In this document: piece after piece, positions 39,902 to 44,441 of the stretch
Numbering within the stretch: position 1 is the stretch's first letter
How the letters are laid out: each line of letters opens with the position of its first letter
Source: Escherichia coli
Lineage (GTDB): Bacteria; Pseudomonadota; Gammaproteobacteria; Enterobacterales; Enterobacteriaceae
Assembly (NCBI RefSeq): GCF_003018115.1
Contig: NZ_CP027457.1
Direction: 5' to 3' (one strand)
DNA: 64,000 bases
Program-made: the position numbers and the translations under genes
The notes under the pieces: model-generated
What the model was told of the DNA's origin: nothing
Database searches by the model: none
What the model saw: only the letters and a program-made list of their open reading frames with translations

Positions 39902-41362
39902 GTGCATCGTGGCGATTTAGTGGTAGAAGGTAATATAGAGAGTAATCAAAAATTGATTGTTCTTGGCAATTTGACAGTCAAAGGTAATATTTCCACTTTC
40001 TCTCTTTCTAATCCATGGGTTATTCTCGGTAACGTGACGGCAACGAATATAGTTACGGATTCACCACTGTTAATTACCGGTTCGATAAATGCAAGTGGAC
40101 TGGTATTTATCGACTCATATTACGATAATCCGTCTACGATTAAGGGGAGTATTAATGCGCGTGGGATATTTATCAATGACATAATTGCACCTGTTGTTGC
40201 GTCTTCGACAAATAGTGAATTCATGGTCCGTGCGAGTGACAAAAATGACACTGAAAATGTCAAAAAAGCGCTGATGATAATAAATCCTGATGCATATTAT
40301 TGGGGTCTAATTAATGATGAAGATGCTCTGAAAGAAATTTTTAAGCGAAGCAATATTCGCATGGCAGGGAATGTCTGTAATCAGATGAAAAAAGAAGCGC
40401 TGTTTCGCCCTAAGCCTTCTCCTGAGTTAGTGCAGGAATTGCAAATGCTGGATGAAGGCAACGTTGCTGCATTTGAAGGACGAGATATTGCGACATTTGA
40501 TCTTGCCATAATGCGAACTCTCCCAAGGCTTAAAGGAATTTCAGCTAACCTACGCAAACAACTTATTGTTACATTACGTATTCGTACCTGGTGGGGTATC
40601 GTCATTTGTTTTTCACTGGTGATTTCAGGTCCACGCTGGATGACGTTGACGTTTTTTGCGCTGATAAGTTTTCTGGCATTGAAAGAATATTGTACGCTTA
40701 TATCCGTACATTTTCCGCGTTGGTTATATTTGGTTATTCCTCTTAACTATTTGCTTATCGGTTTTAATTGCTTTGAGCTGTTTCTGTTATTTATACCTTT
40801 GACTGGGTTTCTGATATTAGCCACCTGGCGAGTTTTTGTGGGTGATCCCTCCGGTTTTCTGCATATCGTGAGCGCCATTTTTTGGGGCTGGATAATGACC
40901 GTTTTCGCCTTGAGTCATACCGCCTGGCTATTAATGTTGCCAACCATAAATATCCAGGGCGGGGCGTTACTGGTGTTATTTCTTTTGGCGTTAACCGGGT
41001 CAAACAATATTGCACAGTATTTATGGGGGAAATCCTGCGGCAGAAGAAAAGTGGTCCCCAAAGTCAGCCCGGGAAAAACGCTGGAAGGTCTGGTGGGGGG
41101 CGTCATCACCACCATGATTGCGTCACTGATTATTGGGCCGTTGCTGACACCGCTAAATACATTACAGGCATTATTAGCGGGTTTGTTAATTGGTATTAGT
41201 GGTTTTTGCGGCGATGTAGTGATGTCAGCCATCAAACGAGATATTGGTGTTAAAGATAGTGGAAAACTATTACCAGGACATGGCGGACTCCTTGACAGGA
41301 TTGACTCATTAATTTTCACCGCTACGGTATTTTTTTATTTTATTCGCTACTGCTGTTACTGA
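39902..41362 (+). CDS. ynbB: 486-aa protein: N-terminal beta-helical repeat domain fused to a CdsA-family (phosphatidate cytidylyltransferase-like) membrane domain; C-terminal part corresponds to YnbB
   Basis: C-terminal ~285 aa multi-TM with CdsA signature KVSPGKTLEGLVGG...LLPGHGGLLDRIDSL; N-terminal ~100 aa of G/N-punctuated beta-strand repeats (LIVLGNLTVKGNIS, ILGNVTATNIV, ITGSINASGLVFI, KGSINARGIFIN). Confidence 0.7.
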   Translation: MHRGDLVVEGNIESNQKLIVLGNLTVKGNISTFSLSNPWVILGNVTATNIVTDSPLLITGSINASGLVFIDSYYDNPSTIKGSINARGIFINDIIAPVVASSTNSEFMVRASDKNDTENVKKALMIINPDAYYWGLINDEDALKEIFKRSNIRMAGNVCNQMKKEALFRPKPSPELVQELQMLDEGNVAAFEGRDIATFDLAIMRTLPRLKGISANLRKQLIVTLRIRTWWGIVICFSLVISGPRWMTLTFFALISFLALKEYCTLISVHFPRWLYLVIPLNYLLIGFNCFELFLLFIPLTGFLILATWRVFVGDPSGFLHIVSAIFWGWIMTVFALSHTAWLLMLPTINIQGGALLVLFLLALTGSNNIAQYLWGKSCGRRKVVPKVSPGKTLEGLVGGVITTMIASLIIGPLLTPLNTLQALLAGLLIGISGFCGDVVMSAIKRDIGVKDSGKLLPGHGGLLDRIDSLIFTATVFFYFIRYCCY

Positions 41363-41377
41363 AGGAAAATAGAGAAA

Positions 41378-43135
41378 ATGGAAAATTCACGCATCCCTGG
41401 GGAACATTTTTTTACCACCAGTGATAATACAGCGTTGTTTTATCGGCACTGGCCCGCTTTACAGCCCGGGGCGAAAAAGGTCATCGTCTTATTTCATCGC
41501 GGTCATGAACATTCTGGTCGTCTACAACATCTCGTTGATGAACTGGCGATGCCAGATACTGCTTTTTATGCCTGGGATGCCCGAGGGCATGGAAAAACTT
41601 CGGGGCCGCGTGGTTATAGCCCATCTCTTGCGCGTTCAGTGCGGGATGTCGATGAATTTGTCCGTTTTGCTGCCAGCGACAGCCAGGTCGGGCTGGAAGA
41701 GGTGGTAGTGATCGCGCAGAGCGTCGGCGCAGTGCTGGTTGCCACATGGGTTCATGATTATGCGCCTGCAATTCGCGGGCTGCTGCTGGCTTCTCCGGCC
41801 TTTAAGGTTAAATTGTATGTGCCGCTGGCACGTCCTGCGCTGGCGTTATGGCATCGTCTGCGTGGTCTGTTTTTTATTAATTCCTATGTGAAAGGACGCT
41901 ATTTGACCCACGATCGGCAACGGGTGGCGAGTTTCAATAATGATCCGCTGATCACAAGGGCGATTGCCGTCAATATCTTGCTAGATCTCTATAAAACGTC
42001 TGAACGTATTGTTAGCGATGCGGCGGCGATTACGCTCCCCACGCAACTTCTGATATCAGGCGATGACTATGTGGTGCATCGCCAACCGCAGATTGATTTT
42101 TATCAGAGATTACGTAGCCCTCTGAAAGAGCTGCATCTGCTGCCTGGCTTTTATCACGACATGTTGGGTGAAGAGAACAGGGCGCAGGCATTTGAAAAAA
42201 TGCAAAGCTTTATTAGTCGTTTATATGCTAACAAGTCACAAAAATTTGATTATCAGCATGAAGACCGCACTGGACCATCAGCGGATCGCTGGCGGCTCCT
42301 TTCTGGTGGACCCGTGCCATTATCGCCGGTTGATTTGGCGTATCGCTTTATGCGTAAAGCGATGAAATTGTTCGGGACGCACTCTGCGGGCCTGCATCTC
42401 GGAATGAGCACCGGCTTTGATTCAGGCAGTTCGCTGGATTATGTCTATCAAAATCAACCGCAAGGTAGTAACGCATTCGGGCGCTTAATCGACAAAATCT
42501 ACCTGAACAGTGTTGGCTGGCGCGGTATTCGCCAGCGCAAAACCCATTTACAAATACTGATTAAACAAGCCGTTGCCGATCTCCACGCCAAAGGTTTAGC
42601 CGTCCGCGTGGTTGACATTGCCGCAGGGCATGGGCGCTATGTACTGGATGCGCTGGCAAACGAGCCTGCCGTAAGCGATATTTTGTTACGTGATTACAGC
42701 GAGTTAAATGTTGCACAGGGGCAAGAGATGATTGCTCAACGGGGAATGTCTGGGCGGGTGCGTTTTGAACAGGGCGATGCGTTTAACCCGGAGGAACTCA
42801 GCGCGTTAACTCCGCGGCCTACGCTGGCGATTGTCTCTGGACTGTATGAGCTTTTTCCCGGAAATGAGCAGGTAAAAAACTCACTCGCAGGTCTTGCCAA
42901 TGCCATCGAACCGGGCGGCATTCTCCTCTACACCGGGCAGCCGTGGCACCCACAACTGGAGCTGATTGCCGGGGTGTTAACCAGTCATAAAGATGGTAAA
43001 CCGTGGGTAATGCGCGTGCGTTCGCAAGGGGAGATGGATTCACTCGTGCGTGATGCCGGATTTGATAAATGCACACAACGGATTGATGAGTGGGGCATTT
43101 TTACGGTTTCGATGGCGGTGCGTCGTGATAACTGA
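41378..43135 (+). CDS. ynbC: Two-domain alpha/beta-hydrolase (lysophospholipase-like) and class I SAM-dependent methyltransferase YnbC
   Basis: 585-aa ORF; N-domain HG oxyanion motif ([10 protein letters not shown]) and nucleophile elbow IAQSVGA; C-domain SAM-binding motif [15 protein letters not shown]. Confidence 0.85.
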
Positions 43136-44441
43136 ACGTCGGAACGTATTGCTACAAGGCGCTGGCTGGTTATTGTTGCTGGCCCCGTTTTTCTTCTTCA
43201 CCTATGGATCTCTTAATCAGTTCACCGCGGTTCAGGACCTTAACAGCCATGATATCCCCAGTCAGGTATTCGGTTGGGAAACGGCGATCCCTTTTCTTCC
43301 CTGGACTATTGTTCCTTACTGGAGTCTGGATCTTTTATATGGATTTTCGCTGTTCATTTGTAGCTCGACATTCGAACAACGCCGACTTGTCCACCGGCTT
43401 ATTCTGGCAACGGTAATGGCCTGCTGCGGTTTTTTTCTCTACCCGCTGAAGTTTAGTTTTATCCGTCCTGAAGTGAGTGGGGTGACAGGATGGCTATTTT
43501 CGCAACTTGAACTGTTTGATCTGCCCTATAACCAGTCTCCTTCGCTGCATATTATTCTCTGCTGGCTACTTTGGCGTCACTTTCGTCAGCATCTGGCTGT
43601 GAGGTGGCGTAAAGTCTGCGGCGGATGGTTTTTACTCATCGCCATTTCGACGCTGACAACCTGGCAGCATCATTTTATTGATGTCATCACAGGGCTGGCG
43701 GTAGGTATGTTGATTGACTGGATGGTGCCCGTCGACCGTCGTTGGAATTATCAGAAACCTGATCAACGTCGAATCAAAATAGCACTGCCATATGTCGTAG
43801 GCGCGTGCGCGTGCATTGTGTTGATGGAGCTAATGATGATGGTTCAGTTATGGTGGTCAGTCTGGTTATGTTGGCCAGTATTATCGCTACTCATTATTGG
43901 CCGTGGGTACGGTGGGCTTGGCGCGATAACAACAGGGAAAGATAGTCAGGGGAAACTCCCGCCCGCCGTTTACTGGCTGACATTGCCCTGCCGCATCGGG
44001 ATGTGGCTGTCTATGCGTTGGTTTTGTCTTCGCCTGGAGCCGGTGAGCAAAATGACTGCTGATGTTTATTTAGGGGCGTTTCCACGACATATTCCGGCAC
44101 AGAATGCGGTTCTGGACGTCACCTTTGAATTCCTTCGCGGACGAGCGACAAAAGATCGACTCTATTTCTGTGTACCGATATTGGATCTGATGGTTCCGGA
44201 AGAGGGGGAACTCCGACAGGCCGTGGCGATGCTGGAAACATTACGCGAAGAGCAAGGCAGCGTTCTGGTCCATTGTGCATTGGGATTATCGCGCAGTGCG
44301 CTGGTGGTGGCGGCATGGTTGTTATGTTACGGACACTGTAAAACCGTTAATGAAGCGATTAGCTATATTCGAGCCAGACGCCCGCAGATTGTGTTGACAG
44401 ACGAACACAAAGCGATGCTGAGATTGTGGGAAAACAGGTAA
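43128..44441 (+). CDS. ynbD: Membrane PAP2-like domain plus dual-specificity protein phosphatase domain, YnbD (start codon uncertain: GTG or TTG near 43128-43149)
   Basis: Track ORF 43050-44441; several TM helices with PAP2-like SPSLH and HHFID motifs; C-terminal CX5R P-loop [13 protein letters not shown]; 5' end overlaps ynbC 3' end. Confidence 0.8.

Follow-up and report, generated by a model that had tools for sequence, protein, structure and literature searches.

Does the compact three-gene locus between pdxI and azoR on this Escherichia coli chromosome encode a route to an unusual lipid, or is it what is left of one? We examined this question for the ydbD-ynbABCD locus in a 64,000-nucleotide stretch of contig NZ_CP027457.1 (assembly GCF_003018115.1), hereafter called the window. 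From the nucleotide sequence alone, its three open reading frames (ORFs) had been read as ynbB, ynbC and ynbD, an operon of lipid enzymes with no assigned pathway and unknown product, possibly cryptic or rewired since ynbA appeared to be missing. Comparison with other genomes indicates that the region is likely to be the ydbD-ynbABCD locus after a single illegitimate deletion of 2,305 bp, a decaying remnant in a rare lineage rather than a new or rewired pathway.

The window has the chromosomal order paaK-paaX-paaY-pdxI, the three-ORF locus, azoR on the minus strand and hrpA. The ORFs are all on the plus strand, at 39902-41362 (486 aa), 41378-43135 (585 aa) and 43050-44441 (463 aa from the earliest possible start), with a gap of 15 nt between the first two and an overlap of 11 nt or more between the last two. 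The layout given by the sequence-only reading was thus correct, each of the motifs that it quoted is present in the translations, and Pfam profile searches supported its domain assignments for all three ORFs, although weakly for the PAP2-like domain. In K-12, the ydbD-ynbABCD genes are situated between pdxI and azoR; the two loci share this position, the flanks (paaY/pdxI upstream, azoR-hrpA downstream), full-length ynbC and ynbD genes and a DNA identity of 97.5-97.7%, and they differ in what lies between pdxI and ynbC.

A deletion of 2,305 bp joins ydbD to ynbB

To define the difference to K-12, we determined the boundaries from blastn matches and a MAFFT alignment. The window aligned in two collinear pieces, with 38701-40567 corresponding to positions 602-2467 of the K-12 locus (L002) and 40568-45200 to positions 4773-9405, so that the 2,305 bp at L002 2468-4772 are absent and the junction is located at 40567..40568. 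The lost segment contains codons 294-768 of ydbD, the 170-bp intergenic region between ydbD and ynbA in which the ynbA promoter is located, all of ynbA and codons 1-34 of ynbB. Neither microhomology nor a scar of an insertion sequence (IS) was found at the junction. The complete K-12-type operon, consisting of four genes and the PynbA promoter, is therefore not present in the window, and ydbD is both truncated and frameshifted.

Because both breakpoints fall on codon boundaries, codon 293 of ydbD is joined in frame to codon 35 of ynbB. The first ORF (39902..41362, plus strand) accordingly encodes residues 72-293 of YdbD followed by residues 35-298 of YnbB, with residues 1-222 of its product representing an internal piece of the neighbouring gene. 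The Pfam match to CTP_transf_1 (E = 1.7e-65) is restricted to residues 225-483, and residues 7-70 have a weak match to Bactofilin. The ydbD remnant itself (39689..40567, plus strand; codons 1-293 of 768 in the alignment to K-12) has a +1 insertion (A at 39746) and a -1 deletion (a single C missing after 39871, in a run of C), due to which reading from the ydbD ATG at 39689 ends at a TGA at 39788. Position 39902, which corresponds to YdbD residue 72, is the nearest GTG after the last stop in the frameshifted ydbD. The 486-aa ORF is hence a by-product of the in-frame junction and a later -1 slip in ydbD, and the chimera is most likely a pseudogene that is either not translated or without function. 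It had been taken for ynbB; it is a ydbD'-'ynbB deletion chimera that is annotated by the Prokaryotic Genome Annotation Pipeline (PGAP) as two pseudogene fragments in genomes that share it.

The absence of ynbA, which had been suspected from the sequence, was confirmed for the whole 64-kb window: searches with tblastn and blastn for YnbA, the YdbD C-terminus, YnbB residues 1-34 and the deleted DNA gave no match there. Relocation of ynbA to another site within the window was ruled out by the same negative searches with YnbA and the deleted DNA.

The only promoter that has been mapped for the operon, PynbA, falls within the deletion. It was located in the intergenic region upstream of ynbA in a study of BglJ-RcsB, and is activated by these regulators and repressed by H-NS (PMC3950696). 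A consensus promoter scan of 39500-44700 yielded 6 sites compared with 8.1 +/- 3.2 in shuffled sequence and hence no excess. A scan for terminators on both strands identified a terminator-like hairpin at 39633..39662, with a perfect 12-bp stem and T-runs on both sides, located after pdxI and 26 nt before the ydbD ATG.

Condition of the ynbB remnant

The remnant of ynbB (40568..41362, plus strand) consists of codons 35-298 and the stop codon, without transmembrane helix 1 and, in comparison with K-12 YnbB, without its own promoter and start codon. The first ORF matches the CdsA-type family profile (PF01148), and its score against NCBIfam PRK11624 was 103 bits, far below the cut-off of 385, which indicates that the product is not the housekeeping CdsA. 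In a phmmer search the catalytic domain aligned to the CdsA protein of Thermotoga (TmCdsA; PDB 4Q2E, 4Q2G) with an E-value of 2.6e-23, and YnbB D181 was placed on Asp144; the offset in TmCdsA numbering was verified at D219, E222, the S223C mutation and K226. The C-terminal catalytic domain retains the signature motif GDVVMSAIKRDIGVKDSGKLLPGHGGLLDRID, which aligns to the TmCdsA signature with the metal-binding D219/D249 pair and K226.

The remnant differs from CdsA and TmCdsA at three points. TmCdsA has nine helices with the N-terminus in the cytoplasm (PMC4083444), and this architecture, including the N-terminal helix M1 and an own start codon, is incomplete in the window: helix 1 of YnbB is gone, since the part of the chimera before residue 249 contains no hydrophobic segment. 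Furthermore, codon 181 (41006..41008, plus strand) is AAT and encodes Asn in place of the invariant Asp equivalent to the accessory Asp144 of TmCdsA. Finally, codon 287 (41324..41326, plus strand) is ACG and encodes Thr in place of a Pro. D181 is shared without exception by four YnbB orthologues and TmCdsA, and P287 is likewise invariant in the YnbB orthologues, which come from Snodgrassella and two metagenomic clusters, and in TmCdsA. Asp144 of TmCdsA is highly conserved, and the D144A mutation costs 98.5% of the activity (PMC4083444).

To identify changes specific to the deletion lineage, we compared the remnant with three intact ynbB alleles, that of K-12 and the two closest ones (98.9% and 98.5% identity). 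The private changes consisted of 4 nonsynonymous substitutions (W89L, E178G, D181N and P287T) and 1 synonymous substitution.

Distribution of the deletion

We searched 5,426 complete E. coli genomes for the locus and the deletion. The whole region had matches in 4,770 of them; among the matches listed, GF3-3 alone was collinear with the window, while the others aligned as two pieces over about 7.2 kb. A 100-nt probe spanning the junction was found intact in only 6 of the 5,426 genomes, namely GF3-3 (from a guinea fowl in the Gambia), two enterotoxigenic E. coli (ETEC) strains of serotype O169:H41, F8111-1SC3, F9792 and L7_E1373_ETEC. In all four carriers for which the annotation was inspected (GF3-3 and O169:H41-type genomes), both pieces are classified as pseudogenes by PGAP, with the ydbD piece labelled 'frameshifted; incomplete' and the ynbB piece labelled as a phosphatidate cytidylyltransferase with a missing N-terminus. 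The locus and the deletion are thus already known in the sense that they are represented and annotated in public genomes.

In a multiple alignment the carriers had 0-2 mismatches per kb over 39600-41600 but were mosaic farther downstream, which points to one ancestral deletion followed by recombination in ynbC and ynbD. The +1 insertion in ydbD is common to all carriers, and the -1 deletion was found among them in the window and GF3-3 only. In the O169 clade, ynbD has lost 1 nt and carries a frameshift annotation, and in F9792 the ynbB remnant has an additional 1-nt deletion. Such lineage-specific lesions after the deletion are the pattern expected of a locus that decays after loss of function.

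The number of complete genomes with at least 80% coverage was 4,579 for ynbC and 4,601 for ynbD, compared with 4,271 for the 3' part of ynbB and 4,251 for ynbA, although the deficit for ynbA may partly represent sequence divergence rather than absence. These counts indicate that the ynb locus is dispensable and that loss or disruption affects its 5' half more frequently.

Other E. coli genomes have separate IS1 insertions in ynbA (hits H71 and H72), at the 3' end of ynbB (L015 3919-4616) and in ydbD (L006 1515-2212), and ydbD is annotated as frameshifted also in LR-46 and ECNB21-M121. The independent insertions and frameshifts suggest that the locus has been eroded repeatedly. An E. coli protein of 889 aa (P0002) contains both the CTP_transf_1 and the YnbC domains and is an apparent read-through fusion of ynbB and ynbC across the 15-nt gap.

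The ynbC and ynbD genes

The two downstream genes are intact. The ynbC gene (41378..43135, plus strand) encodes a protein of 585 aa in which an alpha/beta hydrolase with the triad Ser114/Asp229/His259 (Hydrolase_4, E = 2.7e-67) is followed by a Methyltransf_20 domain (E = 1.2e-151) of the S-adenosylmethionine (SAM) methyltransferase type. Both domains, the catalytic triad and the SAM-binding motif I that define the YnbC family are present, and YnbC retains all 40 residues that are near-invariant when it is aligned with 21 homologues, the most distant of which are about 33% identical. The nearest relatives of the hydrolase domain by sequence are monoacylglycerol lipases (Mycobacterium tuberculosis, E = 2e-15). 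A literature search for PF12147 and Methyltransf_20 found no paper. A ynbC transposon mutant has been described that accumulates polyphosphate, possibly by a polar effect on the downstream gene.

The ynbD gene (43125..44441, plus strand) encodes 438 aa from the GTG used in K-12, with a PAP2_3-like membrane N-terminus and a CX5R dual-specificity phosphatase (DSP) at the C-terminus. A start at 43125, as annotated in K-12, or at the TTG at 43149, as in GF3-3, is more likely than the start at 43050. Pfam searches of the product yielded DSPc with an E-value of 2.3e-26 and weak matches to PAP2_3 (3.2e-4) and PAP2 (0.012). In an alignment of six orthologues 50 columns are invariant, and YnbD keeps all of them, including H182/H183/D186 of the C3-type motif and the CX5R loop. 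The latter is present as HCALGLSRS, with C384, G387, S389 and R390 invariant, and the nearest relatives of this domain by sequence are archaeal and eukaryotic DSPs. In an AlphaFold model based on a 7-sequence alignment, the predicted local distance difference test (pLDDT) score of the DSP domain was around 90, and the domain matched Tk-PTP, DUSP5 and MKP5 at template modelling (TM) scores of about 0.75. Much of residues 1-137 had pLDDT values below 50, and the Foldseek matches of the model were to DSPs only.

For the N-terminal domain, we compared the sequence with the PAP2 reference motifs C1 (Kx6RP), C2 (PSGH) and C3 (SRx5Hx3D). C2-like SPSLH and C3-like STx5Hx3D motifs are present, but the spacing in C1 is shortened (KFSFIRP) and the Arg of C3 is replaced by Thr. 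YnbD has been listed as the fourth putative PAP2 protein of E. coli; it did not complement mutants in the undecaprenyl pyrophosphate (C55-PP) phosphatase or the phosphatidylglycerophosphate (PGP) phosphatase, and no function was ascribed to it.

We estimated the ratio of nonsynonymous to synonymous substitutions (dN/dS) relative to K-12, a measure that spans the entire branch to K-12 and not the post-deletion period alone. The values were 0.19 for ynbC and 0.22 for ynbD, and the three ynb genes together spanned 0.19-0.25; pdxI and azoR had lower values of 0.07-0.09. Relative to the nearest intact alleles, the nonsynonymous to synonymous counts, which are small, were 4:7 for ynbC and 7:8 for ynbD.

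The window differs from GF3-3 at 2 positions in the 4 kb up to about 43.6 kb, whereas the last 0.9 kb contains 30 differences. The best match of its ynbD allele among the complete genomes has an identity of at most 98.9%. There looks to be a recombination breakpoint inside ynbD, at about 43600-44500 in the 3' half.

The intact cluster in other bacteria

At the same site beside azoR-hrpA, Citrobacter has a cluster of six genes in the order ynbA, ynbB, a PlsC-type acyltransferase gene, ynbC, ynbD and a membrane ORF of 133 aa, and the same six-gene cluster is present in Snodgrassella alvi. A PlsC-like acyltransferase gene is located between ynbB and ynbC also in the cluster of Vibrio fluvialis (L009), which adjoins a resolvase gene and has a ynbB of only 132 aa (5000-7008), suggesting that this cluster was acquired horizontally and that its ynbB was truncated separately. 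The small membrane ORF after ynbD, of about 133 aa, has no Pfam match and is 42-65% identical between genera. The positions of the acyltransferase gene and the small ORF are 5367-6008 and 9031-9432 in L016, 6364-7008 and 10026-10433 in L008, and 10020-10430 in L009. No remnant of either gene was found in E. coli, which indicates that the K-12 operon is already a reduced form. The genes are orthologous to those in E. coli, with YnbC being 70-77% identical, whereas the window additionally lacks ynbA and part of ynbB.

The genes are associated also in metagenomic sequences. One protein of 807 aa (P0123; L010 1210-3633) is a fusion of YnbA and YnbC that contains the CDP-alcohol phosphatidyltransferase, hydrolase and methyltransferase domains; over its first 200 residues it has an identity of 43% to YnbA (E = 1e-43), and genes for YnbD, the acyltransferase and YnbB are located downstream. 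Another contig contains all four ynb genes as two divergent pairs. The conservation of the cluster was established for the closer half of the YnbC family, whereas the genes for the more distant homologues (33-37% identity) either were located on short contigs or had none of ynbA, ynbB or ynbD clustered with them.

Among solved structures and curated families, the nearest relatives of K-12 YnbA are a mycobacterial phosphatidylinositol phosphate (PIP) synthase (6H53, E = 1e-7) and, in NCBIfam, archaetidylinositol-phosphate synthase (E = 6e-21), with a score below the curated family cut-offs (75 bits versus 180). No biochemistry of YnbA was found in a literature search. Its kinship to PIP-type synthases suggests that the acceptor may be a phosphorylated alcohol, with YnbD as the candidate for the subsequent dephosphorylation. 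By pairing YnbA with a CX5R phosphatase, the intact cluster resembles the two-step pathways of PIP synthase with PIP phosphatase and of PgsA with PgpA/B/C, in which CDP-diacylglycerol (CDP-DAG) and an alcohol phosphate are converted to a phosphatidyl-alcohol-phosphate and then to a phosphatidyl-alcohol. It differs from them in that YnbA scores below the family cut-offs and YnbD does not complement PGP- or C55-PP-phosphatase mutants; in the window the transferase step is deleted altogether. A phosphatase of the DSP family that acts on PGP is the mitochondrial PTPMT1.

For YnbB, published experiments point to a role in the synthesis of the glycolipid MPIase (membrane protein integrase). Overproduction of YnbB raises the MPIase level, and YnbB is described as a paralogue of CdsA by which CDP-DAG and GlcNAc-PP-DAG are formed (GlcNAc, N-acetylglucosamine; PP, pyrophosphate; DAG, diacylglycerol) (PMC6362211, PMC7018664, PMC11413397). 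K-12 YnbB is also reported to produce CDP-DAG in vitro and is described as the CdsA paralogue dedicated to MPIase; according to a review it restores MPIase upon depletion of CdsA but not bulk phospholipid synthesis, and later papers mention that ynbB is induced by cold together with cdsA. The statement that the operon has no assigned pathway is thereby outdated for YnbB. The sequence-only reading had itself named published biochemistry in a described pathway as something that would speak against it, and the work on YnbB and MPIase is in part of this kind.

Neighbouring features

Directly upstream of pdxI is paaY in the window (gap 38523-38764), in GF3-3 and in the O169:H41 genomes, unlike in K-12, where a ydbA autotransporter pseudogene is located immediately upstream of pdxI (L002 1-458). 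Among the long antisense ORFs of the window are two opposite azoR and hrpA, at 44426-45088 on the plus strand (220 aa) and at 46243-47169 on the minus strand (308 aa). They are presumably spurious since they overlap well-known genes on the opposite strand and have an odd composition.

Discussion

The deletion, which probably arose in a single event, removed PynbA, the ynbA gene, and helix 1 and the start codon of ynbB. It left ynbC and ynbD orphaned, as intact ORFs without their upstream partners or a recognisable promoter. The pathway is most likely off in this strain, with the remaining genes drifting to loss; that expression and activity are both missing is what the nucleotide sequences suggest. 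Of the two states proposed previously, cryptic or rewired, neither describes the locus as well as broken does, given the loss of the promoter, ynbA and helix 1 of YnbB, the mutation of an active-site Asp and the additional frameshifts in the sister genomes.

Several observations weigh against decay. Transcription of ynbC and ynbD may start from internal promoters or be due to read-through from promoters beyond the reach of a consensus scan, and the absence of ynbA refers to the 64-kb window, so that a second copy may be located elsewhere in the genome of the strain. The 4:1 count of nonsynonymous to synonymous changes in the ynbB remnant does not reach significance on its own, because the numbers are small (P of roughly 0.1 relative to the background ratio of the gene), and Asn for Asp in D181N is a milder change than the substitution by Ala that was assayed in TmCdsA. 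An E. coli CdsA protein from which residues 1-36, with the first transmembrane helix, have been removed keeps partial function (PMC11448367), and the loss of helix 1 of YnbB is thus alone no proof of inactivity. Finally, ynbC and ynbD keep all of the invariant or near-invariant residues, which shows that they are not yet degraded and could be under selection.

This last point is also the starting point for the view that ynbC and ynbD form a rewired two-gene module, expressed by read-through or from an internal promoter, that remodels lipids made by the housekeeping enzymes CdsA, PgsA or PssA. Both genes are of full length with their catalytic motifs kept, their dN/dS values relative to K-12 are below 1, and they are present in more complete genomes than ynbA and the 3' part of ynbB, so that this strain is not alone in having ynbCD but no intact 5' half. 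However, the dN/dS values reflect the entire branch to K-12 and exceed those of the flanking pdxI and azoR genes by a factor of 2-3, the only mapped promoter is deleted with no convincing replacement in the scan, and ynbD is frameshifted in the sister clade with the same deletion. Moreover, ynbC and ynbD are clustered with ynbA and ynbB in distant bacteria, and a fusion of YnbA to YnbC exists, both of which argue that the genes depend on each other. We consider a module of this kind improbable.

A new function for the fusion itself, with YdbD(72-293)::YnbB(35-298) being translated as a bactofilin-tethered CDP-diacylglycerol synthase, is a far more doubtful proposition. It is true that the junction is in frame, that the second indel, in the window and GF3-3 only, restores the ydbD frame to give one long ORF, that the CdsA signature SAIKRDIGVKDSGKLLPGHGGLLDRID is intact and that CdsA tolerates the loss of helix 1, but an accidental in-frame junction has a chance of 1 in 3. 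In-frame stops are located between the ydbD ATG and 39902, where the GTG has no good ribosome-binding site, and judging from the topology of TmCdsA a soluble segment of 222 residues without a signal peptide would need to cross the membrane. The D181N and P287T substitutions at invariant positions and the frameshift in the same ORF in F9792 also speak against such a function. That the deletion and the frameshifts are artefacts of assembly or sequencing, a general concern to which the location of the -1 indel in a short run of C lends some substance, is hardly credible, since six complete genomes, assembled independently in different studies, share exactly this junction and the +1 insertion. A decaying remnant of the ydbD-ynbABCD locus is thus the explanation that we favour.

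The proposal of a self-contained lipid route holds up better for the intact cluster, as indicated by the six-gene clusters in Citrobacter and Snodgrassella and the YnbA-YnbC fusion, than for the window, in which the operon is broken. In the intact cluster, the acyltransferase would make phosphatidate, which YnbB would convert to CDP-diacylglycerol; YnbA would then transfer the phosphatidyl group onto a phosphorylated alcohol in the manner of PIP synthase, YnbD would remove the phosphate, and YnbC would methylate and/or deacylate the product. We tentatively suggest that the ancestral six-gene cluster may make a dedicated lipid, for which the candidates are a methylated phosphatidyl-alcohol, produced by a PIP-synthase-like step and the CX5R phosphatase, or the GlcNAc-PP-DAG of a committed step to MPIase with YnbA as the missing transferase, in which case the lineage of the window would be a natural knock-out of ynbA and ynbB that keeps ynbC and ynbD.

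For the annotation of E. coli genomes, our results mean that a CdsA-like gene is the wrong label for the long first ORF, which should be described as a pseudogene chimera of the type ydbD'-'ynbB, and that in this strain the operon should not be regarded as encoding a functional pathway. The product of the intact cluster is a reasonable question, but one that is not particular to this window. The six-gene form and the YnbA-YnbC fusion provide leads on the product of ynbABCD, with one laboratory so far linking YnbB to MPIase. In the cold, up-regulation of YnbB together with CdsA is reported as required. The strains with the deletion are natural mutants in which protein export and growth at low temperature, for example, could be studied.

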